A DNA stretch of 64,000 nucleotides, taken from positions 2,146 through 66,145 of the forward strand of contig JBDRUN010000003.1 in assembly GCA_039801365.1 (NCBI GenBank), read 5' to 3'. Below are positions 1 to 37,531 of the stretch, piece after piece (the stretch's first letter is position 1; every line of letters begins with the position of its first letter). The stretch is from a candidate division WOR-3 bacterium (GTDB taxonomy: Bacteria > Hydrothermota > Tepidihabitantia > Tepidihabitantales > Tepidihabitantaceae). A program made the position numbers and the translations under genes. The notes under the pieces are model-generated. The model made no database searches. It saw nothing but the letters and a program-made list of their open reading frames with translations, and had not been told where the DNA came from.

Positions 1-2
1 AG

Positions 3-893
<891 letters not shown>

Positions 894-13448: not shown

Positions 13449-13497
13449 CGCACGCACAATTACGTCGCGGCCGGGACTTTTCAGTCCCGGTCGCTAC
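13444..13497. terminator. Bidirectional terminator between convergent rpsG and pgeF
   Basis: Nested hairpin GGTAGCG..(CCGGGACT-tttc-AGTCCCGG)..CGCTACC read directly; sits between two convergent stop codons. Confidence 0.5.
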
Positions 13498-14360
13498 CAT
13501 TTTGCACGCCGCAGGACGATTACGGCAAGGTTGCGGCCAGCAGTGCCGTCACGGCGGACCGAGTAGAAGTGCTCCGGGTTCTCTTTGGTGCAGAGGTCGA
13601 GCGAGCCGGCCTCGACGAGGCCCAACCCCGTGAGCAGGCTGCGGTTGGCGGAGCGGAGGTCGAGGTGGAAGCGAAAATGGTTCCAGGGTCCCAGGGTTCT
13701 AGGGTTCAAGGGGTCGAACCGTTGGCTTTCCGATACCTCCTGTTGTTCCGCTGGACGGAGGAAACGGTCGGCCGAGGGGAACTGTTGGCGAAACTCGGCG
13801 GCGACATCCTCACCTACAACGTAGCAGTCAGCGCAGATGCAGGGGCCGAGGGCGAAGTGCAGACGCGGTAGCGGAACCGAGAATCGTTCGGACATCTGTT
13901 GTGCGAGTTTCTCGGCAAGTCTGGTGGCGGTGCCCCGCCATCCGCAGTGGGCAAGGCCGACTACAGGTGGTTTGCATGACCAGATATACACCGGCAGGCA
14001 GTCCGCAACCTTGATGCCGAGTCCGATGCCGGGTAAATCGCTGAAGGCTGCGTCAGCCTCCTGTTGCTTTTCCTGCTTGTCCGGTTCGGCGAAGAATACC
14101 ACCCGTGCAGAGTGAATCTGGTTCATTGTGAAGAGTGTAGTGATGCCAAGGGCGTGCCTGACCCGACGCAGATTTTCTCTGACCGCGTGCTCTTCATCGC
14201 CAACCTGCAGGGACAGGTTCAGAGAATCGTAAGGGCCGCGCGAGACACCGCCCTTGCGGGTAGTGAAGGCTATCACAAAGCCAGGAGCGGGTTGAGACTC
14301 GTAGTATTCTATTCCATTCGCCAGGTGGATTCGCCAGTTCGCCGGAACGCAACCAGGCAT
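13494..14360 (-). CDS. pgeF: YfiH/PgeF-family protein (DUF152, laccase-domain / peptidoglycan editing factor) carrying an in-frame octamer-repeat insertion
   Basis: FTTRKGGVS..SLNLS, HAVRENL, VADCLPV, GLAHCGWRG, and C-terminal RRDG.AGRNL motifs typical of COG1496; 288 aa versus about 250 typical. Confidence 0.7.
   Translation of the reverse strand: MPGCVPANWRIHLANGIEYYESQPAPGFVIAFTTRKGGVSRGPYDSLNLSLQVGDEEHAVRENLRRVRHALGITTLFTMNQIHSARVVFFAEPDKQEKQQEADAAFSDLPGIGLGIKVADCLPVYIWSCKPPVVGLAHCGWRGTATRLAEKLAQQMSERFSVPLPRLHFALGPCICADCYVVGEDVAAEFRQQFPSADRFLRPAEQQEVSESQRFDPLNPRTLGPWNHFRFHLDLRSANRSLLTGLGLVEAGSLDLCTKENPEHFYSVRRDGTAGRNLAVIVLRRAKW
13681..13720. repeat. Octamer tandem array (TTCNAGGG, 5 copies) in-frame inside pgeF, encoding DPLNPRTLGPWNHF
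   Basis: Direct reading: ttccaggg tcccaggg ttctaggg ttcaaggg gtcgaacc. Confidence 0.8.
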
Positions 14361-16103: not shown

Positions 16104-16220
16104 GCTAAGTTCTAGCCATCAGAACGCGGAAGTCAAGCAGAGAAGGGGTTTGAGGGCCAAGTGAAGGCCATCGGACTCGGTTGGTCCGATTCCCCACTGG
16201 AACCATTCAATCCTGGAGCC

Positions 16221-18347
16221 CTATAACTGTTGTCTTGGTGCCAGGTGGGCTTCGACCTTTTCGAGCGAGGACCGGGCCGCGTCGTGATTCGGGTCAATAC
16301 GAATAGCCTGGGACAATGCGGCTCGAGCCGGTTCAAGGCTATCCATCGAGACGTACACCAGGCCGAGCAGGTAATAGTTTTCGGCGTTCAGCGGGTCGAG
16401 CTCGACCGCAGCCTTGTAGTGCCGGATGGCAAGTGCAAAATCGCGGCGAGCGATAGCGAGGCGGCCGCCGGCCAGCTCGGCCAGCACGCGGTTGCGCGGG
16501 TCGGTGCCGACTACCTTGGCCAACTCCCGGTACTCGGCTTCTGCCTCCTTGGTTCGGCCCAGTCCGGCATAGGCGACAAACAGTCCGTACCGGGCCACCG
16601 GGTTGGCCGGATTCGCGTCAATGGCCCGGCGGAATGCGTCGAATGCTCGGCTGCTTCCCATCGTCATGTAAGTATTTCCGGCCTGGGTCCAGGCTTGAGC
16701 AGTGTACGTTCGGCGGTCAACCGGGATGAGACCGGACCCGGCGTACAAGATGATGGCGGCGGCAGAGATAACAGCCGACCTCATCCATTTCCCTTGCCTT
16801 ATGGCTGAAACCGTCTCGGCCACGGCATACCCGGCGAACATCAGGAAGAACGGAATCACCGGCGCGCGCAGGCGGGAAAGAACGTAGAAAACGAGAGAAG
16901 ATACGAGGAAGGCGAGAATGAAGAATAGGGGATAGAGGGCCAGAGGGACAGAAGGATGAGGTCCGGCACTTGAACCCTGGAACCCCTGAACTCTGGAACC
17001 GTTCCTGCTTAGTGCTAGGAAGACACCGACCAAGCCCAAGGCTGCAATCAGGCCGAAATTCAGAAACGCAACTTTGAGCGCAACCGAGTAGGGCCAGGCA
17101 GTTTCCGGGTAGTAGTTGCTAGGAACTTCGTAATTGGACCAGAACAGGAGAAACTTGCGGGAAAGCAGCCACAGGCTCCGACCCGGGGTACGGACGACGA
17201 ATTCCAGACCTTTCCTTGTCCAGTATGCGGAGGCTTGAGACCAGGAAAGCTCCCTGCCGTCTATCATCCGGCTGATGCGCTTGAGCTGCTGATGCGAGAA
17301 GCCGGCAGTACGCTCCAGCTCGGTCTGCTGCCAGGTGCCGTCGGTCCATGGATTCCAGCCGTAGTAGAAGTTGATGCCCGAATGCGCGGTGAACAGCACC
17401 GGTTCGCGGGCAACGATGAGATTCCGAATCGGCACCACGGCGATTGTGGCCAGCGCGCAGGCGGTCATGGTGATGATAGCTCGCAGTCGTGTCGGAGCCC
17501 CCCTTCCTTTCGTTCCCTCCCCCTTGAAGGGGGAGGAAGAGGGTGAAGGTGGGCTTGCGTTCGAGCGTACTTCGAGCTGCGGTGCGGTGCGTTGTGCGGT
17601 CTGCACCCTGCGGCCTGCGCCCAGTGTGCGCCACAGGACGATGACGAACGCCGGAAGCAGGATTAGCATCTCCGGCCGGCAGATGACCAGAAGGCCAAAC
17701 GATATCCCGGCAATAGCCCAGCGCCATGACCCCCTCCCTTTCATTCCCTCCCCCTTCAAGGGGGAGGGAGAGGGTGAAGGTGGTTTCTGTCCTTTTCCTT
17801 CCTTCCCTTCTTTCTTGAAGGGAGAGGCAAGGGGTGAGGGTGAGGTTACACTCCACAGCACAAGCCACAGGGTCAGGAGTGAGAAGAACACCGTGACCTC
17901 GACATAGAGCAGAGCGCCGGTGTAGAACACGATAATGCCGGTCAGGGCGAACCCGAACGCAGCGAACAGGGCACTGGTGCGGCCAAAGATACGCCGGGTC
18001 GAGTCGTAGAGCAGGAAGCAGGAGACTGCAGCGAGGAAGCACTGGAACAACTGCACCGGGAACACCTTTGGGCCGAATATGGCATACAGCCCGGCGAGCA
18101 TGTAGGGATATAGCGGCCGCAGGAAGAAGACTTCGTTGCCCCATAAGCTCTTGTGCACGATGTCCAGGGCCCAGGTGTGGTAGTACCAGGAGTCAATCAC
18201 CTGGGCTGAGATGACCGAAAATGGATGGCCACGCATCTCCAGAATGAACCACAGCCGGATGGCGAACGTCAACACAACCGCCAGCGCGGGTAGTATCGTT
18301 GTGGTCAATGGTCGGCGGTCAGCGGTCGGCGGTCGGCGTTGCGCCAT
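16221..18347 (-). CDS. GT-C fold membrane glycosyltransferase (ArnT/PMT-like) with C-terminal TPR repeats; contains in-frame repeat insertions
   Basis: About 10 N-terminal TM helices in a pattern like dolichyl-phosphate-mannose / 4-amino-arabinose transferases; C-terminal TPR motifs (AWTQAGNTYMTMGSSRAFDAFRRAIDANP, AEAEYRELAKVV, YKAAVELDPLNAENYYLLGLVY). Confidence 0.7.
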   Translation of the reverse strand: MAQRRPPTADRRPLTTTILPALAVVLTFAIRLWFILEMRGHPFSVISAQVIDSWYYHTWALDIVHKSLWGNEVFFLRPLYPYMLAGLYAIFGPKVFPVQLFQCFLAAVSCFLLYDSTRRIFGRTSALFAAFGFALTGIIVFYTGALLYVEVTVFFSLLTLWLVLWSVTSPSPLASPFKKEGKEGKGQKPPSPSPSPLKGEGMKGRGSWRWAIAGISFGLLVICRPEMLILLPAFVIVLWRTLGAGRRVQTAQRTAPQLEVRSNASPPSPSSSPFKGEGTKGRGAPTRLRAIITMTACALATIAVVPIRNLIVAREPVLFTAHSGINFYYGWNPWTDGTWQQTELERTAGFSHQQLKRISRMIDGRELSWSQASAYWTRKGLEFVVRTPGRSLWLLSRKFLLFWSNYEVPSNYYPETAWPYSVALKVAFLNFGLIAALGLVGVFLALSRNGSRVQGFQGSSAGPHPSVPLALYPLFFILAFLVSSLVFYVLSRLRAPVIPFFLMFAGYAVAETVSAIRQGKWMRSAVISAAAIILYAGSGLIPVDRRTYTAQAWTQAGNTYMTMGSSRAFDAFRRAIDANPANPVARYGLFVAYAGLGRTKEAEAEYRELAKVVGTDPRNRVLAELAGGRLAIARRDFALAIRHYKAAVELDPLNAENYYLLGLVYVSMDSLEPARAALSQAIRIDPNHDAARSSLEKVEAHLAPRQQL
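16972..17006. repeat. Octamer tandem array (GGGTTCNA family, reverse orientation) in-frame inside the GT-C/TPR gene, encoding NGSRVQGFQGSS
   Basis: tgaaccc tggaaccc ctgaactc tggaaccg read directly. Confidence 0.75.
17497..17552. repeat. Imperfect palindromic element about 54 nt, copy 1 (CCCCTTCCTTTCGTTCCCTCCCCCTT-GAAGGGGGAGGAAGAGGGTGAAGGTGG), in-frame in the GT-C/TPR gene
   Basis: Arms are near reverse complements; length is a multiple of 3; encodes a Ser/Pro/Gly/Lys-rich loop (SPPSPSSSPFKGEGTKGRG). Confidence 0.75.
17730..17782. repeat. Imperfect palindromic element about 54 nt, copy 2
   Basis: CCCCCTCCCTTTCATTCCCTCCCCCTTCAAGGGGGAGGGAGAGGGTGAAGGTGG; 85-90% identical to copy 1. Confidence 0.75.
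17788..17846. repeat. Imperfect palindromic element, degenerate copy 3, immediately adjacent to copy 2
   Basis: CCTTTTCCTTCCTTCCCTTCTTTCTTGAAGGGAGAGGCAAGGGGTGAGGGTGAGG; same architecture. Confidence 0.6.
18310..18338. repeat. Heptamer tandem array (GGTCGGC/GGTCAGC, 4 copies) at the 5' end of the GT-C/TPR gene
   Basis: ggtcggc ggtcagc ggtcggc ggtcggc read directly; encodes RRPPTADRRPLTT at the protein N-terminus. Confidence 0.7.
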
Positions 18348-21914: not shown

Positions 21915-22438
21915 AGTGGAGGCGGGTCTATAAGCCGGGTTCTGTACCCGGACTTCGTCCGAATCCTCCGAAAGGAATAAGGAATACCTCATTCCTGATT
22001 TCGGAGCCCGGCAGAAGCCGGGCGACGGTCATTTATCTGTGCCTGCGGTTGCCCGCAGGCCTCAAGCGACCTACCCGGGACTCGAGCGGACCGGGCCAGT
22101 CCTTGTCCCGATTTGGTCTTGCACCAGGCAGGGTTTGCCCATTCCAGATGTCGCCACCCGGAATAGTGCGCTCTTACCGCACTTTTTCACCCTTACTCTG
22201 CGAGACCCTTCGCTTACGCTCAGGGCAGACCGCAGAGCGGTCTGGTTTCTGTGGCACTTTCCGTCCACGGGCCGTTTCTGACCCGCAGCCTTGCCGTTAG
22301 CAAGTGCCTTGCCCTTTGGTGCCCGGACTTTCCTCTACAGGAGAGAGTTCAAGGGGTCCAGGGTTCAAGGGTTCCAGTGAGGAACACCGAACCGGACTTC
22401 CAAGACCCGGTCCTGCAGCGACCGTCCGACCCGCCTCC
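21915..22438 (-). ncRNA. rnpB: RNase P RNA (bacterial type A) with an octamer-repeat insertion in P3 and an extra 3'-proximal hairpin
   Basis: On the minus strand: P1 GGAGGCGGGTC...GACCCGCCTCC; universal P4 GAGGAAAGTCCGGGC and ACAGAACCCGGCTTAT; ACAGAAAC; AAGGGTGAAAAAGTGCGGTAAGAGCGCAC (P10-P12); GCAAGACCAAATCGGGACAAGG; all in canonical order. About 520 nt because of insertions. Overlapping ORF-track ORFs 21576-22512 are spurious. Confidence 0.8.
22345..22378. repeat. Octamer tandem array (GGGTTCNA family) inside the RNase P RNA gene, in the P3 region
   Basis: gagttcaa ggggtcca gggttcaa gggttcca read directly; lies between P1/P2 and the GGAAAGTCCGGGC P4 strand. Confidence 0.75.
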
Positions 22439-22764
22439 GAAGAACAGTGGTCAAGCATCCCAGTAGTCAAGTGGTTCAGTGACGGACACGGGGACAGCCG
22501 GACCGTTGTCAAAGAGCAGCGACCGGCGAGGTTGGTGGTCTAGTGAAGAACACCGCAACCTCTGAACCCTTTCTTCTACTGACAGTGTAGTCGGTTCTGA
22601 CGAGCTTGGCAAGTGGAATGAGCTCGGACCGATGAACTTGGACTAGGACTACGATTCCCGAACAACCGATTCCGGAACGACTGCCATTGACAGGGAACCA
22701 GGAAGGGCTATATTGAATCGCACGACCAGACAATGGGGCCTGGCCGCGAAAAACGGAGGATGCA

Positions 22765-25188
22765 ATGACCGTCACCAAGGTCGTCGGAACGCTTGTGAGC
22801 CTGGCCGGCCTGCTGGTGGCGCATCAGCTCAGCCTTGCGCCGGGGCAGTTCTCCTTTGAACCCTTTGGCGAGTTCTATCGCGTAGTCGCTGAAGGTTTCA
22901 CATCAGAGGGGCCTCCCGGACATCCTGTGCTGCCCGTTCGCTTCCTAACTTACATCCTGCCGCCCGGGACCAAGGCTGAATCAGTGGACATCAAGACCAG
23001 CGAATACAAGTTCGTCGGCAAGTACTACATCTGTCCGGCACAGCCGTCAGTGCCGCTTGACAGTACGCCGCCGTGGGTGCCGCCGGACTCTGCAATATAC
23101 AACTCGAAGTCGCCCTATCCGGCTGCTCCGGTTGAGATTGTGAACCGCGGGTTCTTTGACGGAGCCAGCGTGGTTACGGTGGCGGTTCGACCGGTGAGGT
23201 ACATCCCTGTCAACCGGGAAGTGTTTGCCCTTTCTTGGATTGAGTTCGATTTCTTTCTCAGCGAGGCGGCTCCGCCGACGCGAGCTATGGTCAGGGACAT
23301 TCATGCGCAGGAAACCCATGACCTGGCGCTGCGGGCGGTCATCGAGAATGACGAGGACATTCCCGCCTACTACCAGTCGCCCATGCTCATTTCAGAGCAG
23401 GCACCGGGAGCCAATGCCCGGGCACCATACCCATCTCCAACCCAGTACACCATTATCACCAATGACCTCTTGGCCAGCTCCTTCCAGCCCTTTGCCGACT
23501 GGCTGACCAACAAAGGCGTCCCGGCCAGCGTTGTCCGAATGAGCCAGTTCCTGCCCTACTTCTCGGGCGTCGATAGTGCCGAGAAACTGCGCAACTACCT
23601 GAAGTACGGATACCAACAGTGCGGCGCCATCTGGGTTCTTCTTGGCGGAGATGCCGGAGTTGTGCCGTTTCGGTACGGGTGGAGGATCAACGACGACACC
23701 GCTCGCCCCAATGCGTCGGGGAATATCATACCCTCCGATCTCTACTTCTCAGACATGAACGGGAACTGGGATGTTGATGGAGACCAGCGCTGGGGTGAGC
23801 CTCACGACGGCGTTGACGTCTACCCCGAGCTTTACGTCGGTCGCCTGACTGTGCGGCAGTCTGAGAAGGTTCAGAACTGGGTGAACAAGCTGCTCTACTA
23901 CGAGATGAATGGGAGCAATGACTTGAGCCAGTTCAACCGGGCGACCTGGATTTATGACGGCGAAGCTGGACTCACTCCATACTCCCAGACTTTCGAGCAG
24001 TTCCCTCTCTACTACACACACAGCTACTACAATAGCGTGACTGCGCCAACTGCGCGGAACGCCTTCGGCAGGGCTGCATCACCCAGCTCTGCGGCGGGCA
24101 TATACAACGTAAACTGCCATGGCGACCCGAGGAACTTCGCCTCAAAATCTACGGGGGGATGGTGGAAAGTCTGGGCAGACAGCAGCCCCGACGGTGAGAA
24201 CGAGCAAAACGCCTGGTTGCGGCGCTGTGACCTCCCCGGTCGCCACTACATCGTCTATGACATCGGCTGCTATACCGCAGCCTTTGACCCATTCATTCCG
24301 CATCCTCCAGGGCACGAGTACTATCCGTCTGACACCCTATTAGCTGATGCTTACACCGATTTCTATCCAACAACACTCGGCGTGGCCCACTTGGGGAATA
24401 CTCGCTGGGGCTGGCCAACGGCGTCGCGAGAACTACAGCATTGCTTCTGGCAGTTATTCTTCAGCTCGGGCAACGCTTCTCTCGGGGTGGCAGAGGGGCT
24501 GTCCAAAGTTGACTACCCCGACTACTACCTACGACATGCCCACAGTCTCTTCGGTTCACCCGAGAACGAGCCCTGGATAATGTCCCCTGCGTCAATGTAC
24601 GTGCGGGCTCCGTCCTCAATACCTCAGGGTGTACCAGTTCAGTTTCAGGTCAAGTGCTCCACCGCGGGTGGAGCTGGAATTTCCCGGGTGAGGGTGTGCC
24701 TTTACAAGCCGAACGACGTCTACCAACTACGCCTGACGAACTCCAGCGGCATCGCCAACTTCACGGTCTGTGCCGGAAGTCCCGGCACGCTACTCGTCAC
24801 CTGCTCCTACCGCCGAGCCGGAACCGGGTCCTTTCAGCAGTATCTTCCTCGTCAGAGAACCTGCCAGGTCATTCCGGCCAAGGGCGAAGGGCCGCAAAGT
24901 GAGGAGTCAGGATTGCCACGGGAACTCGGATTTACCGCTCTGAATCCCAATCCCGCGCTCGGTAATCTCACGGTGCAATACGGCGTGCCGGTCAAGGGTA
25001 GGGTGAAGCTGCTGCTCTATGATACCCAGGGAAGAAGCAGGTCAGTGATAACAGACGAGGATGTGAATCCTGGTTACTACAGGCAAGTCATCAGTAGAGA
25101 CGCTTGGCCCTTTTCGGCCGGTGTATACTTCCTGGCTCTCACGCAGAACGGCAGCCAAGTCACCAGAAAGGTAGCGGTCGCAAAGTAG
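22765..25188 (+). CDS. Peptidase C25 (gingipain-like cysteine protease) family protein with T9SS C-terminal sorting domain
   Basis: N-terminal propeptide-like domain, C25 catalytic-domain motifs (YTIITNDLLASSFQPFADWLTNKGV; YFSDMNGNWDVDGD; CHGDP); C-terminal about 80 aa (LNPNPALGNLTVQYGV..GRVKLLLYDTQGR..GVYFLAL) matches the T9SS/Por secretion CTD. Confidence 0.8.
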   Translation: MTVTKVVGTLVSLAGLLVAHQLSLAPGQFSFEPFGEFYRVVAEGFTSEGPPGHPVLPVRFLTYILPPGTKAESVDIKTSEYKFVGKYYICPAQPSVPLDSTPPWVPPDSAIYNSKSPYPAAPVEIVNRGFFDGASVVTVAVRPVRYIPVNREVFALSWIEFDFFLSEAAPPTRAMVRDIHAQETHDLALRAVIENDEDIPAYYQSPMLISEQAPGANARAPYPSPTQYTIITNDLLASSFQPFADWLTNKGVPASVVRMSQFLPYFSGVDSAEKLRNYLKYGYQQCGAIWVLLGGDAGVVPFRYGWRINDDTARPNASGNIIPSDLYFSDMNGNWDVDGDQRWGEPHDGVDVYPELYVGRLTVRQSEKVQNWVNKLLYYEMNGSNDLSQFNRATWIYDGEAGLTPYSQTFEQFPLYYTHSYYNSVTAPTARNAFGRAASPSSAAGIYNVNCHGDPRNFASKSTGGWWKVWADSSPDGENEQNAWLRRCDLPGRHYIVYDIGCYTAAFDPFIPHPPGHEYYPSDTLLADAYTDFYPTTLGVAHLGNTRWGWPTASRELQHCFWQLFFSSGNASLGVAEGLSKVDYPDYYLRHAHSLFGSPENEPWIMSPASMYVRAPSSIPQGVPVQFQVKCSTAGGAGISRVRVCLYKPNDVYQLRLTNSSGIANFTVCAGSPGTLLVTCSYRRAGTGSFQQYLPRQRTCQVIPAKGEGPQSEESGLPRELGFTALNPNPALGNLTVQYGVPVKGRVKLLLYDTQGRSRSVITDEDVNPGYYRQVISRDAWPFSAGVYFLALTQNGSQVTRKVAVAK

Positions 25189-25196
25189 GAGAGTCC

Positions 25197-26510
25197 GTGC
25201 GACCTCCTGCCTGTTGCGTCATTGTTCTTGCGGCTATTGGGCTAGGCCAGAATTGGGAAACAGCCGCAATCCTAGGTGCTCCGGGTTCTTACGTTCCGTG
25301 TGCGATTGCTGTGGACAGCGCCGGCCGACCGTGCGTGGCGTTCGGCGTTGGGAGGCGTCTAGGATACGCCAGTCAGGACGGGGCCGGTTGGAGATTCGAG
25401 TATCCTGACAGCAGTGCCTACGTTGCGGAGGTGGACTTGTGCCTAGACACAGCTGGGCGTCCTCACATTGGCTACAGTGGGGTACGCTACGCCCACTGGG
25501 ACGGCACCAACTGGCATACTGAAGCTGTTGCTGAAGGGAGCGGATTGACGCTGACGCTGGCTCGGGACAGAACTCCGCATATGGTGTTTGTAGATTCTCT
25601 GGGCGTAAAGTATGCCTATAAGGCCGGCGATACCTGGAACATCCTGACGGTCCCGGCATATCAAGCTGATTCGCTAAGGCGGCTGGGGGGCGCTTCGCTC
25701 GCTGTTGACGCAGCCGACCAACCAGGAATTGCGGTAACCTGGACCAAACATAGTAACCACGACAGCATATGGCTCTCGTTCTTTGAGTATGATGGTCAGA
25801 ACTGGCATAGGTTCGAGGTTGACTCGGCTAAGGGCTGGGGACCCTACGACTTCTGGGTGCCCAAGGTTCAATACGAACCGGGTACCGACATCTTCCACAT
25901 CACATACCGCGCCTATGCCTATCAAGGTGTGTACGTGACCGGAAGACGCAGCGCTTGGCAGGTCGAGCAGGCGAGTGTGTCGGTCGGAAACTGGTGGTAC
26001 GACTTCGCGCTTCACCAGGGAAGACCCTATATTGTTTGTTCCAGCGTTAGGGTTCCTCTGAAGTATCAGTGGCGTTGGGCCGGAGGGTGGGAAGAGGAAC
26101 TGGTTGTCGAAGAGGCTGCGCCGGCAGTTTCTATTGCGGTTGACCGGACCGGTAGACCCCATGTCGCCTTCTTCCCTTTCAGTGGCGACACCCTGTACTA
26201 CGCCCGCAGGCTGTTTGTCGGCACAGAAGAACCGGTGCCGGCAGTCACTCGTGCCGAGCCACAGCTCGTGGTCCATCCCAATCCCGCGCCTCGTGCCTTC
26301 ACGCTTGAGTTTCCAGTCTCTTCTCGGACAACCGCCACAATCTCGCTCTGCGACGCCTCAGGCAGAACCGTCTGGACAGAAGAGCAGACGGTATGTCCCG
26401 GCCACTACCGCACGAGACTTCGCCTTCCAGCGGAGGTTAGTCCCGGTGTCTACTTCCTTCGGGTGAAGGGCAGCCAAGAGGAAGGTACTGCGAGGATAGT
26501 CCTCAGGTAG
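25197..26510 (+). CDS. Secreted repeat protein (W/Y-rich beta-propeller-like repeats) with T9SS C-terminal sorting domain
   Basis: GTG start behind AGGAGA RBS, signal-peptide-like N-terminus; repeated motifs (GRPHIGYSG, GRPYIVCSS, GRPHVAFF; WDGTNWHTE, DGQNWHRFE); C-terminal PQLVVHPNPAPRAFTLEF...GRTVWTE...GVYFLRV T9SS CTD. Confidence 0.6.
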   Translation: MRPPACCVIVLAAIGLGQNWETAAILGAPGSYVPCAIAVDSAGRPCVAFGVGRRLGYASQDGAGWRFEYPDSSAYVAEVDLCLDTAGRPHIGYSGVRYAHWDGTNWHTEAVAEGSGLTLTLARDRTPHMVFVDSLGVKYAYKAGDTWNILTVPAYQADSLRRLGGASLAVDAADQPGIAVTWTKHSNHDSIWLSFFEYDGQNWHRFEVDSAKGWGPYDFWVPKVQYEPGTDIFHITYRAYAYQGVYVTGRRSAWQVEQASVSVGNWWYDFALHQGRPYIVCSSVRVPLKYQWRWAGGWEEELVVEEAAPAVSIAVDRTGRPHVAFFPFSGDTLYYARRLFVGTEEPVPAVTRAEPQLVVHPNPAPRAFTLEFPVSSRTTATISLCDASGRTVWTEEQTVCPGHYRTRLRLPAEVSPGVYFLRVKGSQEEGTARIVLR

Positions 26511-26607: not shown

Positions 26608-27738
26608 GTGAATAGCAGGATAGTCCTCGCCATCGGCGGTAATTCCCTTATACGGGCCAAGGACAAGCAGTCTTTTTCGGACCAGCTTGCTGCAGTTGGT
26701 GACACCTGCCACCAGGTTGCCGACTTGGTCGAGGCCGGGCATGAGGTCGTCATTACCCACGGCAACGGGCCACAGGTCGGCTTCCTTCTCATTCGGTCGC
26801 ACTTGTCACGGAACCGGCTGCCGGAGACTCCACTCGATGCCGCGAATGCTCAGACCCAGGCGGAAATCGGGTACATGATTCAGCAGGCGCTCGGCAACGA
26901 GCTGAGCCGGCGGGGACTGTATCAAACCCAGAAAGCCAAGAGCCAAGGGTCAGGAGTAGAAGCTCAAAGTCCAGCCAGAGTGAATGGCGTTGTGACAGTT
27001 GTGACACAGGTGGTGGTTGACCCGAATGACCCGGCGTTTCAGAATCCGTCCAAGCCGGTCGGGCCGTTCTATACCAAGGCTGAGGCCGCGGCTCTGCAGA
27101 GAGAACTGGGCTGGACAATGCGTGAGGACGCAGGTCGCGGGTTTCGGAGATTCGTGCCGTCGCCCCGGCCAGTGGAGATTGTAGAGCTGCCGGAGATTAG
27201 GCGGTTGCTGGAGTCAGGGTTCGTGGTAATCGCCTGCGGTGGAGGAGGGATTCCGGTTGTGAGTGAGCGGACAACTCAGAGCTCAGTAGTCAGGAGTCAG
27301 AACGCAGAGTGCGGAAAACCGGAGTCGGAAGGCTGGCGGCAGGTGATGGATAGTAGGCTGTTGCGGGGAGTAGCAGCGGTGATTGATAAGGATTTGGCAT
27401 CGAGCCTACTCGCGCGGGAACTCGGCGCTGACATATTCGTGATTTCCACCGCGGTGGAGCAGGTGTATCTGGATTACGGTAAGCCAAACCAGCGGCCGCT
27501 CGGTAGCGTCAAAGCAAAAGAGATGCGGGAATACCTCTTGGCCGGTCAGTTTCCAGATGGTAGCATGGGGCCGAAGGTTGAGGCGGCCCTTTCCTTTCTG
27601 GGGCTAGATGAATTCAGGACGCAGGAAGCAGAACGCAGAATGCAGGAGCTGGGAGCGGAGCGGCAGGTTATTATCACCGACCCGGAACATATAGTGGCCG
27701 CACTGCGGGGAGAAGCGGGAACGAGAATTACAGCATGA
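26608..27738 (+). CDS. arcC: Carbamate kinase with three in-frame low-complexity insertions
   Basis: IVLAIGGNSL...HGNGPQVG...VVIACGGGGIPVV...IDKDLASSLLARELGADIFVISTAVEQVYLDYGKPNQRPLG...GSMGPKVEAA are carbamate kinase signatures; 376 aa versus about 310 typical. Confidence 0.8.
   Translation: MNSRIVLAIGGNSLIRAKDKQSFSDQLAAVGDTCHQVADLVEAGHEVVITHGNGPQVGFLLIRSHLSRNRLPETPLDAANAQTQAEIGYMIQQALGNELSRRGLYQTQKAKSQGSGVEAQSPARVNGVVTVVTQVVVDPNDPAFQNPSKPVGPFYTKAEAAALQRELGWTMREDAGRGFRRFVPSPRPVEIVELPEIRRLLESGFVVIACGGGGIPVVSERTTQSSVVRSQNAECGKPESEGWRQVMDSRLLRGVAAVIDKDLASSLLARELGADIFVISTAVEQVYLDYGKPNQRPLGSVKAKEMREYLLAGQFPDGSMGPKVEAALSFLGLDEFRTQEAERRMQELGAERQVIITDPEHIVAALRGEAGTRITA
26931..26985. repeat. arcC insertion 1 (GCAGAGT-family repeat DNA; encodes KAKSQGSGVEAQSPARV)
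   Basis: CAGGAGTAGAAGCTCAAAGTCCAG related to CAGGAGTCAGAACGCAGAGTGC (insert 2) and CAGGAAGCAGAACGCAGAATGC (insert 3). Confidence 0.6.
27270..27330. repeat. arcC insertion 2 (encodes TTQSSVVRSQNAECGKPESEG)
   Basis: Same motif family; falls between conserved carbamate kinase blocks. Confidence 0.6.
27606..27665. repeat. arcC insertion 3 (encodes EFRTQEAERRMQELGAER)
   Basis: Same motif family. Confidence 0.6.
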
Positions 27739-29090
27739 AGGGTTCAAGGGTTCGAGGGTTCAAGGGGCCGAGTGAGCAGACCGGACGATGCCAGATACCA
27801 GATAACAGATTGCAGATTGCAGAGTCCAGACCACGGAACTCAGGATTGTGCGTCCTGGCGTTCTTGGTGGTTGTTTCATCAATCTTCGCTCAGCCGGCGA
27901 TGGTGCTTATTCCGATGGACCTGACGCAGGCCGACCATCTGAAGGCGTACGGCATCGTGTATCGGCTGTTGCAGCGGGGGCAGAGAGCGGAGTGGCTTCT
28001 GAACTATCGGGGCGGTTCGTTCCTCTTGCCGGTTGAGGCTCAGGCAATGAAAGAGTGTCGGCTTGAAGGGGTGGTCTATCAGTCGGTGTCCGCGGCCGAC
28101 CTGGTACAGATCAGGCAGACTATTGATCAGAACAACATGGAGTCAGTTATGCTGGAGCGGCCAACGAGGCTGGCGGTGTACGTTCCACCCACCGCTGACC
28201 CGTGGGACGATGCGGTTCGGCTGGCCCTGGACTATGCCGGCATTCCGTACGACAAGGTCTGGGATGAGGAGGTGCTGGCCGGTAAGCTTTCCCAGTACGA
28301 CTGGCTGCATCTGCATCACGAGGATTTCACCGGCCAGTACGGCAAGTTCTATGCTTCGTACCATAACGCAGACTGGTACCAGGCCGAAGTGGCGCTGAAT
28401 ACGAAAATGGCGCGTAAGCTCGGATTCTCCAAAGTCAGCAAACTGAAGCTTGCGATTGTCGGGATGGTGCGGCAGTATGTCGCGGATGGCGGGATGCTGT
28501 TTGCAATGTGTTCGGCCACAGACACGCCGGATATTGCCTGGGCGGCACAGAATACGGATATCTGTAATCAGGTTTTCGATGGCGACGGCGTTGATCCGGC
28601 GTATCGCTCAAAGCTCGACTACAGTGGTTGTCTGGCATTCGAGAACTTTGAGCTAGTTACCGACCCAATGGTGTATGAGCACTCAGACATTGACACCTAT
28701 CTTGAGGCGACTGCCCGCGGGCCGGATACATACTTCGCACTGTTTGACTTCTCGGCCAAGTTTGACCCGGTGCCGACGATGCTGGTTCAGAACCACGTAG
28801 GGCTGGTCAAGGAGTTTCTCGGCCAGAACTGCGGGTTTCGCCGGGAGCGGCTGAAAAAGAGCACGCTCATTATGGGTGAGGTCAAGAATACCGAGGAGGT
28901 GAAGTACATTCACGGTAACTTCGGCAAGGGGACTTGGACTTTTCTCGGTGGCCACGACCCTGAGGACTACGCCCACCGCATCGGCGACCCAGTGACCGAC
29001 CTTTCCTTGCACAAGAACTCGCCTGGGTACAGGCTGATACTGAATAACGTGCTGTTTCCCGCGGCGGAGAAGAAAAAGCTGAAGACGTGA
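27735..29090 (+). CDS. Hypothetical secreted protein (possible ThuA/DUF4159-like amidotransferase-like fold); 5' end built from tandem repeats
   Basis: Long ORF with a conserved-looking core (LAVYVPPTADPWDDAVRLALDYAGIPYD, MLFAMCSATD); its first about 35 codons are the GGGTTCNA and CAGATTG arrays, so the true start is probably near 27846 (hydrophobic signal LCVLAFLVVVSSIFA). Confidence 0.45.
   Translation: MKGSRVRGFKGPSEQTGRCQIPDNRLQIAESRPRNSGLCVLAFLVVVSSIFAQPAMVLIPMDLTQADHLKAYGIVYRLLQRGQRAEWLLNYRGGSFLLPVEAQAMKECRLEGVVYQSVSAADLVQIRQTIDQNNMESVMLERPTRLAVYVPPTADPWDDAVRLALDYAGIPYDKVWDEEVLAGKLSQYDWLHLHHEDFTGQYGKFYASYHNADWYQAEVALNTKMARKLGFSKVSKLKLAIVGMVRQYVADGGMLFAMCSATDTPDIAWAAQNTDICNQVFDGDGVDPAYRSKLDYSGCLAFENFELVTDPMVYEHSDIDTYLEATARGPDTYFALFDFSAKFDPVPTMLVQNHVGLVKEFLGQNCGFRRERLKKSTLIMGEVKNTEEVKYIHGNFGKGTWTFLGGHDPEDYAHRIGDPVTDLSLHKNSPGYRLILNNVLFPAAEKKKLKT
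27739..27767. repeat. Octamer tandem array (GGGTTCAA GGGTTCGA GGGTTCAA) spanning the arcC stop
   Basis: Direct reading. Confidence 0.8.
27791..27832. repeat. Heptamer tandem array (CCAGATA CCAGATAA CAGATTG CAGATTG CAGAGTC CAGACC)
   Basis: Direct reading. Confidence 0.8.
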
Positions 29091-29096
29091 GAGCAA

Positions 29097-29136
29097 AGGG
29101 TTCAAGGCTTCCAGCGTTCCAGGGTTCGAGGGTGAG
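29097..29136. repeat. Octamer array (GGGTTCAA GGCTTCCA GCGTTCCA GGGTTCGA GGGTGAGG), left flank of four-helix-bundle gene 1
   Basis: Direct reading. Confidence 0.8.
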
Positions 29137-29163: not shown

Positions 29164-29541
29164 ATGCTGAGGAACTACAAGGAGTTGACTGCATGGCAGC
29201 GGGCGTACGGGCTTTGTCTGGAGGTTTATCGCCTTACTGCCGAGTTTCCAAAGGAGGAGAAGTATGGGCTTGTATCTCAGATTCGGCGGGCCGCCGTGTC
29301 GGTTCCATCCAACATTGCCGAGGGATACGGCAGAAGAACCACGGGTGAGTATCTCCAGTCTCTGCATGTTGCGTACGCTTCTCTGTGCGAGCTCGAGACG
29401 CAAGTTCTCCTTGTTTCGGACCTGGGGTTCCTGAAATTGGAGCCGTCGCGGAAACTGAAGGAAGACGTTGGTGATGTCGAGCGGTTGCTCAAGGCGCTCA
29501 TCAGGTCATTGGAGCAGAAGCGTTCTGCTCCTGAACACTAG
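29164..29541 (+). CDS. Four-helix-bundle protein (TIGR02436 / 23S rRNA intervening-sequence protein family, PF05635; same family as DGR Avd)
   Basis: YKELTAWQRAYGLCLEVYRLTAEFPKEEKYGLVSQIRRAAVSVPSNIAEGYGR...SLCELETQVLL is the characteristic family sequence. Confidence 0.8.
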   Translation: MLRNYKELTAWQRAYGLCLEVYRLTAEFPKEEKYGLVSQIRRAAVSVPSNIAEGYGRRTTGEYLQSLHVAYASLCELETQVLLVSDLGFLKLEPSRKLKEDVGDVERLLKALIRSLEQKRSAPEH

Positions 29542-29572
29542 AACCCTTGAACCCTAGAATCCTGGAACCCTG
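29541..29572. repeat. Octamer array in inverted orientation (GAACCCTT GAACCCTA GAATCCTG GAACCCTG), right flank of four-helix-bundle gene 1
   Basis: Reverse complement of the GGGTTCNA family; starts in the gene's stop codon. Confidence 0.8.
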
Positions 29573-29580
29573 TCTCTGAT

Positions 29581-29847
29581 ATGTGCCTGGCCATACCGGT
29601 AAGAATTACCGAGCTTCGCGGCGATATGGCGGTCGGTGAAGTAGGCGGCATCGAGCGCGAGATTTCCGTGCTGATGACGCCGGATGTGAGAGTCGGTGAT
29701 TATGTCATAGTTCACGCCGGGTTTGCACTGCAGATTGTGGACCAGGAAGAGGCGAAGGAGAACCTCAGGATTCTTTCCGAGATGGCTCAGGTCACCGAGA
29801 AGGTTCGGCAGAAGGCGCGGCGGACTAGGCCTAACCGGACTGGGTGA
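29581..29847 (+). CDS. hypC: Hydrogenase maturation factor HypC/HupF
   Basis: Invariant MC(L/I)A(I/V)P N-terminus (MCLAIPVRI) and length of 88 aa. Confidence 0.85.
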   Translation: MCLAIPVRITELRGDMAVGEVGGIEREISVLMTPDVRVGDYVIVHAGFALQIVDQEEAKENLRILSEMAQVTEKVRQKARRTRPNRTG

Positions 29848-33457: not shown

Positions 33458-35494
33458 GTGGCCGACCACAGCCAGTTCAAACTCGTAGCTCCGTTCGAGC
33501 CGAGTGGGGACCAACCAGAAGCAATAGAACGACTGGTCGAGTTCATCCAGTCCGGGGCCAAGTATTCAACGCTTCTCGGTGTGACGGGTTCGGGCAAGAC
33601 CTTCACGATGGCGAATGTCATTGCCCGACTGAATCGGCCGACAATCGTCATTTCTCACAACAAAACCCTGGCCGCGCAGTTGTTCGGCGAGTTCCGTCAG
33701 TTCTTTCCGGAGAATGCGGTCGAGTACTTCATTTCCTACTACGATTATTACCAGCCTGAGGCGTATGTGCCGGAGCACGACCTGTACATCGAAAAGGATG
33801 CGTCAATCAACGAGGAAATCGAGCGACTCAGGCTGCGGGCTACCTCCAGTCTGCTGGAGCGCAGGGATGTGGTGGTGGTGGCCTCGGTTTCCTGCATCTA
33901 CAACCTGGGTGAGCCGTGGGAGTTCAGAGAGTCGGTGCTGCCGCTGGAGCAGGGCAAGGACCTGGACCGGGACGGGCTGATTGAGGAGCTGGTCAGACTC
34001 CAATACACACGGAACGATATGGAGTTGAAACGTTCGACGTTCCGAGTACGGGGCGACTTTGTGGACATTCATCCTTCACACCGGGACTACGGTCTGCGGG
34101 TGGAGTTCGACGGCAGTCAAATCAGCCGACTGACCGTGTTTGACATCGTGTCCGGGGACAACGTGGAGCAGAGGCAGCGGATGATAATCTATCCGGCCAA
34201 GCAGTTCGTCACTACTGAACGCCAGATAGAAGGCGCAATTGCCTCAATCGAACAGGAGTTGGCACAGCGGGTGAGCGAGCTTGAGTCGCAGAACAAGCTA
34301 CTTGAGGCGCAGCGGCTGGCGACCCGGACCAGGTTTGACATCGAGATGATGCGTGAGTTCGGGTACTGTCCTGGGATCGAGAACTACTCACGGCATCTGT
34401 TGGGCAAGAAACCGGGCGAGCGACCGTACTGCATGCTTGACTACTTCCCGGCCGACTACCTGATGATTATTGACGAGTCGCACGCGACAATCCCTCAGAT
34501 TCAGGGAATGTACAACGGTGACCGGGCGAGAAAGCAGACGCTTGTGGACTACGGGTTCAGGCTACCCTCGTGTCTGGATAACCGACCTTTGCGGTTCGAC
34601 GAGTTCCAGGCACTGGTAAGACAGGCAATTTTCACCTCAGCTACCCCAGGACCGTACGAGTTTGAGCACAGCCAGGGTCGTGTTGCAGAGCTGGTGGTGC
34701 GGCCAACCGGCCTTGTTGACCCGAAGATGACAATCAGGCCGACCAAGGGCCAAGTTGACCACCTGATTGGAGAGATTCGCAAGCGGGTAGAGAACCACGA
34801 GCGGACCCTGGTTACCACGTTGACCAAGCGGATGGCCGAGGACCTGGCTGAGTATCTGACTGAGATGGGGCTGAAGGTGCGCTACATGCACTCGGAGATT
34901 GACGCCATCGAGCGGGTGGAAATCCTGCGCGGGCTCAGGCTAGGTGAGTTCGACGTGCTCGTGGGGATCAACCTGCTGCGGGAGGGGCTGGACCTGCCGG
35001 AAGTGTCGCTTGTGGCGATCCTTGATGCGGACAAAGAGGGATTCCTGCGGGATGAACGTTCGCTGATTCAGACTGCGGGCCGGGCAGCGAGAAACGTGAG
35101 GGGAGAGGTGATCCTTTACGCGGACAACATCACGCGGTCAATCAGGATGGCGCTGAAGGAGACAGAACGCAGGCGGCAGAAGCAGATTGAGTACAACCTT
35201 AGGCACGGTATCGAACCGCGCTCGATACAGAAGTCAGTGGACCAGGTGCGGCTGACAACCTCGGTGGCGGACGCGAAGCCGGAGGAGCCAATAGCCAATA
35301 GCCAATGGCCAATGGCGGAGGAGGAGGACAGGATTGCGGCGCTGGACAGATTGCAGAAGGAGATGAAAGAAGCGGCGCAGAGACTGGAGTTCGAGAAGGC
35401 CGCAGAGTACCGGGACCGGATTACCCGGCTGCGCCAGCAGATTGACGACGAAGAGTGGAAGCGGGGCCGCCGCAAGCGGCTCAAGAAACGCTGA
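33458..35494 (+). CDS. uvrB: Excinuclease ABC subunit B
   Basis: [17 protein letters not shown], Walker A GVTGSGKT, helicase motifs, C-terminal UVR domain ([17 protein letters not shown]); GTG start proposed at 33458 (ORF opens at 33401); carries an in-frame CCAATAG heptamer array. Confidence 0.9.
35288..35315. repeat. Heptamer tandem array (CCAATAG CCAATAG CCAATGG CCAATGG) in-frame in uvrB, encoding [10 protein letters not shown]
   Basis: Direct reading. Confidence 0.8.
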
Positions 35495-36519: not shown

Positions 36520-36936
36520 TTGTTCCGGATTGGGGTAGCTATGGCGATAATCGAACAGAGAATAAGGTTGGTCGGGTCGAAGGGCAGCAGGGATGTGGTG
36601 GCGCTGTTTGACAGCGGCGCAAGCTATTCAATCATTCAGCCCGGTCTTGCCCGTGAGGTTGCGCGTCCAGAGCGGTTGCCCACCCCCAAGCATTTCGGAA
36701 CCGCGGAGAAGGGGCGCAAGGTTACCGCGAAGGAGTGTGTCCGGCTCGACTTCAAGCTCAACGGCCACACGCTCAGCGACGAGTTCATGGTCGTTCCCGG
36801 CATCACGGAATCGGTCATCATCGGCGCGGCTACGATGCAGAAGTGGCGCATGAAACTCGACTTCGAGCACGACCGGGTAATAGTTGACCCGCGGGTTACG
36901 AAACTGAGACTGCTCAGGCTAGGCAATAGCCAATAG
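36520..36936 (+). CDS. Retropepsin-like (clan AA) aspartic protease
   Basis: Active-site ALFDSGASYSII (D-S/T-G-A), flap and C-terminal IIGAATM motif typical of bacterial retropepsin-like proteins. Confidence 0.75.
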   Translation: MFRIGVAMAIIEQRIRLVGSKGSRDVVALFDSGASYSIIQPGLAREVARPERLPTPKHFGTAEKGRKVTAKECVRLDFKLNGHTLSDEFMVVPGITESVIIGAATMQKWRMKLDFEHDRVIVDPRVTKLRLLRLGNSQ

Positions 36937-36950
36937 GCAATGGGCAATCG
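36919..36950. repeat. Heptamer array (GGCAATA GCCAATA GGCAATG GGCAATC) bridging the protease stop and the four-helix-bundle gene 2 start
   Basis: Direct reading; provides both the TAG stop and the ATG start. Confidence 0.75.
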
Positions 36951-37460: not shown

Positions 37461-37493
37461 TAATTGGCTGCGTGCCCCTGGCACGTTTGCTGC

Positions 37494-37531
<38 letters not shown>

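Follow-up and report, generated by a model that had tools for sequence, protein, structure and literature searches.

Background

The closest precedent for the locus described here is the rnpB gene of heterocyst-forming cyanobacteria, which carries STRR repeats; in the work of Vioque (1997, Nucleic Acids Res 25:3471), these are said to lie in helix P12. REP/BIME, ERIC, Correia and other MITE-like elements are short dispersed palindromes that form hairpins, often just 3' of stop codons, and the intervening sequences and expansion segments of rRNA are extra hairpins at helix tips that vary between close relatives. As to RNase P RNA itself, P19 is listed among the helices of the bacterial class A molecule (PMC2858038), and P3 is, in eukaryotes, a conserved protein-binding module (PMC4919922, PMC4536320).

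We analysed an rnpB gene lying in a 64-kb stretch of DNA from a WOR-3-lineage bacterium (this whole stretch is called 'the window' below). The gene shares with class A RNase P RNA (RF00010) all core helices and conserved blocks, in canonical order, but exceeds it by about 150 nt, located in P3 and at the P19 position. As in the cyanobacteria, short tandem repeats of a genome-wide family lengthen a peripheral helix of the RNA and leave the core intact. The differences are that the cyanobacterial units are heptamers, whereas the P3 units of the window are octamers (period 8); that the repeats reportedly sit in P12 there, and here in P3, P19 and the leader, with P12 affected in relatives; that the host is a WOR-3 bacterium; and that the insert consists of two arrays in inverted orientation, with a defined YCAC loop between them. 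Inverted arms forming hairpins and dispersed copies (P3, leader and positions 16135-16235) are shared with MITE- and REP-like elements, but here the arms consist of tandem 8-mers and copies also occur in frame in protein genes. Like the rRNA segments, the inserts are extra hairpins at the helix tips of an essential structured RNA and vary between close relatives, although the P3 helix of the window is imperfect. The helix-loop-helix P3 of eukaryotic RNase P/MRP is likewise an enlarged helix, whereas the P3 extension reported here is dispensable within its own clade. The literature searched yielded no account of a family of dispersed tandem-octamer hairpins in WOR-3, nor any article that connects WOR-3 with RNase P or tandem repeats.

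Identity and core structure of the rnpB gene

A full-length match to RF00010 (RNaseP_bact_a) was obtained with cmscan at 21915-22437 of the minus strand (260.9 bits, E = 6.5e-84, for a gathering score of 100). It spans model positions 1-367 of 367, with only four non-canonical pairs flagged, and confirms the RNase P RNA gene that a preliminary description had proposed on this strand from the sequence alone. Class A, not class B, was the best clan member, and the class A specificity-domain helices (P13/P14, P16-P17-P6) were aligned. The universal blocks follow each other in the correct order and P1 to P4 show their canonical pairing, as had been claimed (cmscan and motif coordinates, Table 1). 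P1 (11 bp), P2 (7 bp) and the base of P3 (8 bp) are nested and close the molecule; for the long-range helix P4, the pairing read from the sequence joins GAAAGUCCGGG (22322-22330) to the complementary CCCGGCUU (21930-21945), with a bulged U and an ACAGAA flank. An exact 27-mer inside the S-domain block, GGGTGAAAAAGTGCGGTAAGAGCGCAC, is common to 12 WOR-3 MAGs.

The RNA is 523-524 nt long, in agreement with the earlier estimate of about 520 nt, compared to 358-410 nt in most WOR-3 homologues. The excess over the 367-position model and over most of these homologues is about 150 nt, located in P3 and at the P19 position. Seven mechanical open reading frames (ORFs) of 65-148 aa overlap the gene on both strands; none has a Pfam match at E <= 0.1, and they had rightly been taken as spurious. 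No second rnpB was found by cmscan in the window. The genes neighbouring rnpB carry T9SS sorting tails, and a 451-aa neighbour protein is 75-92% identical to WOR-3 proteins; a C25 peptidase is also encoded nearby. The best explanation, judging from the sequence, is that the locus is the working rnpB of a WOR-3-lineage bacterium, with an ordinary class A core (P1-P4, J-regions, P15-P18 and S-domain). The RNA would be active with its inserts retained.

Table 1. Positions in the window of the rnpB gene, its helices and inserts, its upstream region and an intergenic hairpin copy
Feature	Position	Strand	Sequence or description	Basis
rnpB, RNase P RNA, bacterial class A	21915-22438	-	523-524 nt	RF00010 match; fold z-score -9.0
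P1	22428-22438 (5' strand); 21918-21928 (3' strand)	-	GGAGGCGGGTC / GGAGGCGGGUC (5'); GACCCGCCTCC (3')	11 perfect pairs; cmscan structure line
P2, 5' strand	22420-22427	-	GGACGGUC; partner GACCGUC, 22024-22030	cmscan; motif coordinates
P3, whole helix	22335-22418	-	84 nt; 8-bp base CUGCAGGA / UCCUGUAG plus ~66-nt extension	
P3 extension, 5' arm	22381-22410	-	degenerate complement of the octamer array, paired largely via G·U	
P3 apical loop	22377-22380	-	UCAC	sequence; carrier alignment
P3 extension, 3' arm	22345-22376	-	four tandem octamers UGGAACCC UUGAACCC UGGACCCC UUGAACUC; + strand GGGTTCNA	TRF period 8
P4, 5' strand block	22321-22335	-	GAGGAAAGTCCGGGC / GAGGAAAGUCCGGGC; pairs with 21930-21945, usual bulged U	
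Conserved block	22245-22252	-	ACAGAAAC	motif search
P12, moderately extended	22196-22240	-	likewise in L032 and L029	cmscan insertion; alignment
S-domain conserved block	22166-22194	-	AAGGGTGAAAAAGTGCGGTAAGAGCGCAC / AAGGGUGAAAAAGUGCGGUAAGAGCGCAC	cmscan; motif coordinates
P19-like hairpin	22006-22023	-	GCCCGGC-UUCU-GCCGGGC; equivalent of the short P19 of relatives (e.g. L023, ACCCGGCUUGCCGGGG)	
Extra hairpin	21967-22005	-	UCCGAAA...UUUCGGA	fold z = -5.6 and z = -6.2
Tail	21946-21966	-	GGAUUCGGACGAAGUCCGGGU; second UUCGGA and second CCGGG; includes AAGUCCGGGU	
J19/4 and P4 3' strand	21930-21945	-	ACAGAACCCGGCTTAT / ACAGAACCCGGCUUAU	cmscan; motif coordinates
Leader, -10 box to mature 5' end	22439-22583	-	~145 nt; hairpin copy and degenerate octamer array	
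Leader degenerate octamer array	22445-22481	-		sequence
Leader hairpin copy	22528-22569	-	GGGUUCAGAGGUUGCGGUGUUCU-UCAC-UAGACCACCAACCUC	paralogue of P3 element
Promoter-like site	22584-22612	-	TTGCCA-17-TACACT	promoter scan; block kept upstream of relatives' rnpB
Paralogous intergenic hairpin/array copy	16135-16235	+	…GGTCCGATTCC-CCAC-TGGAACCATTCAATCCTGGAGCCC…	

The P3 extension

In the cmscan alignment, P3 holds 66 nt where the model has 6, which places an insertion where the preliminary description had put it. That description had read the insertion as an octamer array. The four tandem units are indeed there, with the consensus YNGAACCC, but they form only the 3' arm: the insert is a self-complementary two-armed hairpin element closed by a UCAC loop, and not a one-sided array. 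The whole helix folds at -36 kcal/mol (z = -3.6), the extension forming a chain of 4-5-bp helices with internal loops between them. Within rnpB, matches to other places in the window are confined to the 3'-arm array.

Homologous extensions were compared between carriers, that is, genomes whose rnpB has the extended P3. Among the four carriers compared, a 15-column apex block around the UCAC loop is 87-100% identical and the octamer arm 75-89%, for cores that are 84-90% identical. The 5' arm is the least conserved part, at 58-77% identity. Support from covariation for the extended P3 is thin: across five carriers, 28 consensus pairs were counted, 2 of them compensatory, and shuffle controls were not exceeded. 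In register, 95% of cells were paired, compared to 30-59% when slid.

The P19-position expansion

Between the 3' strand of P2 and the ACAGAAC motif that leads to the 3' strand of P4, the window has 78 nt (21946-22023), compared to 13-21 nt in most relatives. The insertion of about 75 extra nt announced before the P4 3' strand is therefore present, but the excess is slightly smaller: compared to the Rfam model it amounts to about 62 nt, and compared to the relatives to about 57-65 nt. Its perfect TCCGAAA...TTTCGGA hairpin is found exactly as described. Both this extra hairpin and the duplicated AAGTCCGGGT noted near the 3' end exist, but their position corresponds to an expanded P19, an optional helix which nearly all WOR-3 rnpB have and which is short in most of them. 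The 3' arm of the extra hairpin contains a tandemly duplicated heptamer, AUUCCUU (TRF period 7 at 21972-21986).

The minimum free energy structure of the region has three hairpins (-46.2 kcal/mol), while the centroid is a single long helix (-36.3 kcal/mol). According to these models, the tail would either form a small hairpin of its own, the third, or supply the 3' strand of a single long P19. Two copies of the string AAGTCCGGG are present, at 22322-22330 and 21947-21955; the duplicated AAGTCCGGGT provides a pairing strand within the expanded P19 region and is not a P4 copy with a role of its own. Folding also indicates that AAGUCCGGGU can pair locally with the P4 3' strand (hairpin of -12.5 kcal/mol); such pairing would be in competition with P4 and could hinder folding. 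As a candidate target-site duplication, a direct CCGGG repeat was read in the sequence on either side of the insert; no similar repeat is evident at P3. The window contains no other copy of the P19-region hairpin, and the insert is absent from the relatives L012, L043 and L040. Among the genomes sampled, the expanded P19 region is unique to this one.

Leader, promoter and dispersed copies of the repeat

The leader is a third repeat-bearing segment, beyond P3 and P19, which had escaped the preliminary description. The promoter block upstream of it is identical in the window, L032, L042, L012 and L043. Variants occur in L046 (TTGCCC), L040 (TAGACT as -10) and L049 (TTGTCA/TAGACT), and the block of L050, located by eye, reads TTGCCA...TAGACT. 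The promoter-to-P1 distance is only about 6 nt in L040 and about 19 nt in L012; array-bearing leaders are found in L032, L042, L043, L046, L049 and L050.

With at most one mismatch, GGGTTCNAGGGTTC has 14 matches in the window, compared to 0.12 expected, and none of 100 shuffles gave more than 1, which upholds the earlier view of a genome-wide repeat family. Arrays of period 7-8 number 16, against about 1.2 in shuffles; heptamer arrays occur elsewhere in the window as well as in the P19 hairpin. Sites of the octamer family were found in the P3 and the leader of rnpB, in intergenic DNA, just past stop codons and, in frame, within two protein genes. Sharing of the array with protein genes had been proposed, and it holds for two in-frame arrays; the four other sites are intergenic (three arrays and one hairpin copy).

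The two-armed form of P3 was encountered only in P3, in the leader copy and at 16135-16235, and for the last of these it rests on sequence similarity, because the fold of the copy itself is not significant (z = -0.41). The P3 apex motif, TTCC-YCAC-TGGAAC, recurs at 16190-16203, outside any RNA gene. Most other octamer arrays are one-sided and fold unremarkably (z from -1.1 to +1.3); for the array at 29490-29620 (z = -2.2), the fold is dominated by an adjoining perfect hairpin. Copies of the octamer element are present at orthologous intergenic positions in relatives, and repeat arrays outside rnpB are also found in L032, L039 and L041.

Gain and loss in relatives

Four other independent assemblies, from different projects, have homologous P3 extensions (L032, L040, L042 and L050). 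Colonisation of rnpB by the repeat family, as put forward earlier, stands as regards the insert in P3, which is neither a recent nor a private event. Synteny around rnpB is conserved in relatives. P3 is short (7 bp) in L043 and in the sister lineage L012 (96% bootstrap), and intermediate in L049, which has only a stub. The intermediate lengths (L049, L046) were taken from synteny look-ups, the DNA pattern search covering gaps of 62-92 only; the look-ups for P0002, P0004, P0010, P0013, P0017 and P0014 gave no rnpB beside the kinase gene, or the contig ended before it. The extension persists in both subclades. Its presence in four other assemblies but not in the sister L012 indicates that its gain or loss is rapid and that the RNA can do without it. 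When tested, monophyly of the octamer-P3 carriers was rejected (window + L032 + L040, bootstrap 0%).

Expansions recur in the phylum. In L039 and L041, P3 is long as well, with units that are different and apparently of heptamer type, and repeat-rich expansions of P12 are found in L012, L043, L042 and L050. One 39-nt palindrome occurs in the P19 of L008 and L013 and in the P16/17 region of L050; this palindrome is absent from the window.

Origin and possible roles of the inserts

We consider it probable that the gene is a working rnpB, whose extra 150 nt or so are repeat hairpin elements at the tips of outer helices, tolerated as passengers. Small hairpin-forming repeat elements would have landed in these tips, or grown there: one of about 66 nt in the P3 loop, with tandem octamers on both arms, and another of about 60 nt beside the short P19 hairpin. 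By analogy with published bacterial RNase P structures, the P3 and P19 tips should be exposed to solvent. An insertion into a hairpin loop would only lengthen the helix, which points away from the core; the ribozyme would therefore still fold and cut pre-tRNA, and selection would be slow to remove the insert. The octamer family is scattered over the rnpB leader, intergenic DNA, sites past stop codons and in-frame protein loops, with gains and losses in the clade over short timescales; given this scatter and rapid turnover, the inserts are best read as tolerated passengers and not as required parts of the enzyme.

The extended P3, perhaps together with P19, might instead be a selected functional module, such as a lineage-specific protein docking platform or a tertiary brace; we regard this as unlikely. 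P3 tips do contact proteins in other systems, as with Rpp20/Rpp25 on the eukaryotic P3 and RnpM at the tip of the B. subtilis P3 (PMC4919922; PMC10853771). The conservation of the apex, on a par with that of the catalytic core, could point to a function, and the high identity of the octamer arm, the pairing kept in five of five carriers and the presence of the extension in both subclades are in its favour. However, L012 and L043 do without the extension and L049 has only its stub, the 5' arm drifts freely, and the P19 insert is seen in a single genome. Moreover, the copy outside RNA genes has the apex motif too, so that the conservation of this motif may be a property of the element rather than of RNase P.

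The geometry of long hairpins exactly at helix tips is also that of rRNA intervening sequences. By analogy with 23S rRNA, the inserts might be excised by RNase III with no religation, to leave an RNA of two or three base-paired pieces that P1, P2 and the P3 base could hold together. This seems improbable: a chain of 4-5-bp helices interrupted by internal loops, as in P3, is a poor RNase III substrate, and no fragmented bacterial RNase P RNA was found in the literature searched. A broader version, to which we give as little credence, would make processing substrates of the P3 and P19 inserts and of the array-bearing leader, the clade running on a multi-piece RNase P RNA and the leader hairpin directing 5' maturation. 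Finally, assemblies classically go wrong at short tandem repeats, and this gene is of unusual length, as might be expected of a chimera with repeats mis-joined into rnpB, or of a decaying pseudogene. The probability of either is minimal, and both were rejected: the core is intact, with its full-length 260.9-bit match, the same architecture recurs in the four other assemblies, which are independent and stem from different projects, both promoter and synteny are conserved, and the window has no second rnpB.

Conclusions

Gene callers will set spurious ORFs over the rnpB locus, and length filters may miss rnpB genes of 520-590 nt. Invasion of RNase P RNA by short tandem repeats is not peculiar to cyanobacteria, and also concerns the uncultured phylum WOR-3. 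From the data, WOR-3 genomes seem to hold a family of dispersed tandem-octamer hairpins, which also inserts in frame into proteins. In this phylum, hairpins of 7-8-nt repeats have repeatedly come into and gone from the 5' leader and no fewer than four outer helices (P3, P12, P16/17 and P19) of the same essential ribozyme, and the inserts of WOR-3 rnpB constitute a natural map of the insertion-tolerant sites in the class A structure.

Catalytic core of the RNase P RNA gene

An Rfam scan of the whole window returned a single ribozyme, a bacterial RNase P RNA of class A (RF00010), at 21915-22437 on the minus strand. The match scored 260.9 bits (E = 6.5e-84; the gathering score is 100) and covered the model in full (positions 1-367 of 367); only four pairs of the alignment were flagged as non-canonical. 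The RNA, of 523 nt, is therefore a member of RF00010, as the preliminary description had claimed, and the universal blocks quoted there were all located where expected (Table). P4 is formed by AAGUCCGGG paired with CCCGGCUU, with the usual bulged U, and cmscan showed none of the conserved junctions to be disturbed. The same description called the gene 'hidden under spurious ORFs', which is fair, since none of the seven mechanical ORFs (65-148 aa) that overlap it had a Pfam match at E <= 0.1. The core is that of a standard class A ribozyme. Two large insertions were placed in the RNA by cmscan: one in the P3 loop (66 nt versus 6 in the model), the other, of 62 nt, between the 3' strands of P2 and P4.

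Hairpin insertions in P3, P19 and the leader

P3 (22335-22418) is predicted to fold into one extended hairpin with imperfect pairing (-36 kcal/mol, z = -3.6). The octamer array first noticed there is present, but it is not one-sided: because the 5' arm complements the octamers of the 3' arm, with a UCAC loop between them, the insert is a two-armed element. Part of this pairing is by G·U, for example GGUUCGG opposite UUGAACC. For five octamer carriers, RNAalifold predicted 28 pairs, two with compensatory changes; in a four-carrier alignment, 95% of cells paired in register compared to 30-59% when slid, and shuffle controls were not exceeded. The helix thus seems to be kept mostly through sequence conservation, and its statistical support is modest. 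Identity among four carriers, the window's gene and three relatives (L032, L040, L042; L-numbers denote loci from relatives' assemblies with rnpB or its neighbour genes) was 87-100% in the apex, 75-89% in the octamer arm and 58-77% in the 5' arm; for the catalytic core it was 84-90% among full-length carriers.

The second insertion belongs to a 3' region of 78 nt (21946-22023, minus strand) made of three parts. An 'extra hairpin near the 3' end' had been reported, and it does exist. In nearly all of the 17 rnpB genes of a first scan, a short hairpin (13-21 nt) separates the P2 3' strand from ACAGAAC; its position is that of P19, and the reported feature is therefore an expansion at the P19 position. 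P19 is among the helices listed for bacterial class A RNAs (PMC2858038). Of the window's hairpins, the first matches the ancestral P19 (compare ACCCGGCUUGCCGGGG in L023). The insert itself is recent, because L012, L043 and L040 lack it and the P19 expansion of L032 is unrelated to it in sequence. A direct CCGGG repeat on both sides and an internal UUCGGA duplication suggest an insertion or duplication event. In the window, L023, L029, L028 and L039, the P4 3' strand is matched almost exactly by the 5' strand of P19 (ACCCGGCUU / GCCCGGCUU), so that P19 in this lineage mimics P4. A caution for the window is that AAGUCCGGGU and the 3' P4 strand can form a local hairpin (-12.5 kcal/mol) that would compete with P4. 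Given the resemblance of ACCCGGCUU to the P4 strand, shorter versions of this pairing potential are found in many WOR-3 homologues; such competition is evidently tolerated.

Upstream of the gene, a promoter-like site with its flanks (CTTGCCA...ACTACACT) is conserved in L032, L042, L012 and L043, with variants in L046, L040 and L049. The distance from the -10 box to the mature 5' end is about 6 nt in L040, 19 nt in L012, 90-150 nt in L032, L042, L043, L046, L049 and L050, and 147 nt in the window. The long leaders (the 22439-22583 region of the window and those of six relatives) are filled by octamer-array hairpins. If the putative promoter is used, its distance from the mature end implies that the primary transcript would need 5' trimming.

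Table. Features of rnpB, its surroundings and its relatives (WIN, window)
Feature	Locus	Position	Strand	Remark
P1	WIN	22428-22438 with 21918-21928	-	motif search
P4 5' block	WIN	22321-22335	-	motif search
Block ACAGAAAC	WIN	22245-22252	-	motif search
S-domain block	WIN	22166-22194	-	motif search
Block ACAGAACCCGGCTTAT	WIN	21930-21945	-	motif search
P3 base, 8 bp	WIN		-	CUGCAGGA with UCCUGUAG
P3 5' arm	WIN	22381-22410	-	degenerate complement of octamer array
P3 loop	WIN	22377-22380	-	UCAC
P3 3' arm	WIN	22345-22376	-	tandem octamers UGGAACCC UUGAACCC UGGACCCC UUGAACUC
First 3' hairpin	WIN	22006-22023	-	GCCCGGC-UUCU-GCCGGGC
Second 3' hairpin	WIN	21967-22005	-	UCCGAAA...UUUCGGA; 3' arm with tandem heptamer AUUCCUU x2 (TRF)
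Tail	WIN	21946-21966	-	GGAUUCGGACGAAGUCCGGGU
Promoter-like site	WIN	22612-22584	-	TTGCCA-17-TACACT; promoter scan
Leader hairpin copy of octamer element	WIN	22528-22569	-	
Decayed leader octamer array	WIN	22445-22481	-	aligned by eye with cleaner array in L043 leader
Intergenic octamer arrays	WIN	27740-27763, 29098-29129, 29539-29570		first two beside stop codons
Array in YfiH/PgeF-family gene	WIN	13678-13721, in ORF 13494-14360	-	Pfam Cu-oxidase_4, 2.2e-63
Array in PMT_2/TPR gene	WIN	16929-17001, in ORF 16221-18347	-	peptide NGSRVQGFQGSSAG..., between domains
RGSCAAT heptamer arrays	WIN	35286-35317, 36921-36952, 37299-37360, 37365-37386, 37438-37462		both orientations
Arrays just after stop codon of 451-aa gene	L008, L046, L049	4280-4297, 5217-5234, 4912-4929		
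rnpB with P12 expansion	L012, L043, L042, L050	6494-6963, 3437-3929, from 3159, 1-570		P12 longer by 60-100 nt, repeat-like
39-nt palindrome	L008, L013, L050	1472-1510, 4470-4508, 137-175		GGGACATGA..ATTGNTCTCAAT..ATCNTGTCCC; variant in L041
Cobalamin riboswitch	L013, L015, L029	4046-4311, 1378-1552, 293-467		adjoins rnpB
23S_rRNA_IVP / bAvd-like-fold gene	L045, L046, L049, L050	2364-2750, 5350-5520, 4961-5332, 3389-3760		after 451-aa gene

Expansions in related genes and history of the P3 extension

The 17 genes of the first scan were mostly 358-410 nt long, with a P3 hairpin of 4-8 bp. Scanning metagenomes for the conserved P1/P2 strand followed by 62-92 unspecified nt and the P4 strand gave four loci, and synteny-guided look-ups four further rnpB genes. 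A homologous octamer-type P3 extension was found in L032, L040, L042 and L050; L039 and L041, from other WOR-3 sublineages, have a long P3 built of different, apparently heptamer-like units; P3 is short in L012, L043, L046 and L030, and intermediate in L049, where it resembles the L032 type with its middle missing. Other helices are affected as well: P12 in four relatives (with units such as GTGTCTNT in L043), the P16/17 region in L008 and L050, and P19 in L028, L013, L008, L041, L032 and L050. L050 has expansions in all three of these as well as in P3 and would reach about 590 nt, exceeding the window's gene. One and the same 39-nt palindrome lies in P19 in L008 and L013 versus the P16/17 region in L050. 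Its presence in different helices is hard to reconcile with local slippage and points to the insertion of pre-formed hairpin elements; it suggests a mobile hairpin repeatedly landing in rnpB helix tips.

In a bootstrapped neighbour-joining tree of 347 ungapped core columns, the window grouped with two short-P3 genes, L012 (96%) and L043 (86%). A clade of the window with the octamer carriers L032 and L040 never formed (0% bootstrap). Identity of the 451-aa protein encoded nearby agrees with this tree (92% with L012, 82-84% with L032 and L042). Non-carriers are thus interspersed among carriers, and the extension may be either ancestral with several losses or re-acquired; under both histories it is dispensable.

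A dispersed octamer family

GGGTTCNAGGGTTC (at most one mismatch) has 14 matches in the window, compared to 0.12 expected, and TRF found 16 arrays with a period of 7 or 8 and 2.9 or more copies, where 20 shuffled sequences gave about 1.2 and never more than 4. Within rnpB, the array segment alone matches elsewhere in the window. An intergenic copy at 16135-16235 (+), between two minus-strand ORFs, has both loop and array in common with P3 (TTCC-CCAC-TGGAACCATTCAATCCTGGAGCCC), the common apex TTCC-YCAC-TGGAAC being followed by octamers. The preliminary description placed the array in protein genes too. This holds for two arrays, translated in frame inside real genes; others are intergenic. In the YfiH/PgeF-family protein, the peptide RFDPLNPRTLGPWNH is among about 22 extra residues separating two blocks alignable to solved structures. 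Octamers of the window's type also occur outside rnpB in relatives, and the arrays adjacent to stop codons, which recur at the orthologous position behind the 451-aa gene in L008, L046 and L049, are reminiscent of REP-type elements that come after genes. A second family, of RGSCAAT heptamers, is scattered over 2.2 kb in which few ORFs are convincing; next comes (GACA)x9.5 (37494-37531).

Host lineage and gene neighbourhood

The window comes from a WOR-3-lineage bacterium, on three grounds: the exact core 27-mer GGGTGAAAAAGTGCGGTAAGAGCGCAC is shared by 38 species-representative genomes, of which 12 are labelled candidate division WOR-3; the genes flanking rnpB, for a C25 peptidase and another protein, both carry T9SS sorting tails; and a conserved 451-aa neighbour shares 75-92% identity with WOR-3 MAG proteins. 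In nearly all relatives rnpB directly neighbours, divergently, an amino-acid-kinase gene, followed by the 451-aa gene. In the window the two T9SS genes (C25 peptidase and a 468-aa protein; 22765-26510, +) part rnpB from the kinase gene, and this pair looks like an insertion that broke local synteny. The highly conserved 451-aa protein (27735-29090, +) has no Pfam hit, and its homologues are named 'asparagine synthetase B' by NCBI; since an octamer array overlaps its annotated start, translation probably begins at a site downstream of it. A cobalamin riboswitch adjoins rnpB in three WOR-3 relatives and none lies next to the window's gene; a small 23S_rRNA_IVP / bAvd-like-fold gene follows the 451-aa gene in four close relatives, with no counterpart seen there in the window.

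Probable tolerated passengers

We consider it probable that this rnpB is active and carries tolerated repeat-hairpin passengers. Hairpin elements entering terminal loops would lengthen helices coaxially, and in published bacterial holoenzyme structures P3 and P19 have their tips directed away from the active site. Such inserts should be nearly neutral, which is consistent with their fast gain and loss. Conservation of the apex could speak for a functional P3 module; this is unlikely, however, as the extension is missing in the sister lineage and an identical apex motif exists in a non-rnpB copy. Even less probable is an IVS-like excision of the inserts, giving a fragmented RNase P RNA, for which the helix would be a poor RNase III substrate. 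That the locus is a pseudogene or a mis-assembly is hardly credible and was rejected: the core is intact, four other independent assemblies have a matching architecture, and both the promoter-like site and synteny are conserved.

Short tandem repeats (STRR) are known in cyanobacterial rnpB, where they are reportedly heptamers in P12. The present case departs from that precedent: the host phylum is WOR-3, the unit in P3 is 8 nt long; P3, P19 and the leader are affected (P12 and P16/17 too in relatives), the window's form is an inverted-array hairpin with a defined loop, and turnover can be demonstrated among close relatives. In the literature searched, no paper tying WOR-3 to RNase P or to tandem repeats was found. 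A repeat-expanded WOR-3 rnpB would not much surprise an RNase P specialist; the distribution of repeat hairpins in these genes is nevertheless a useful natural map of insertion tolerance.
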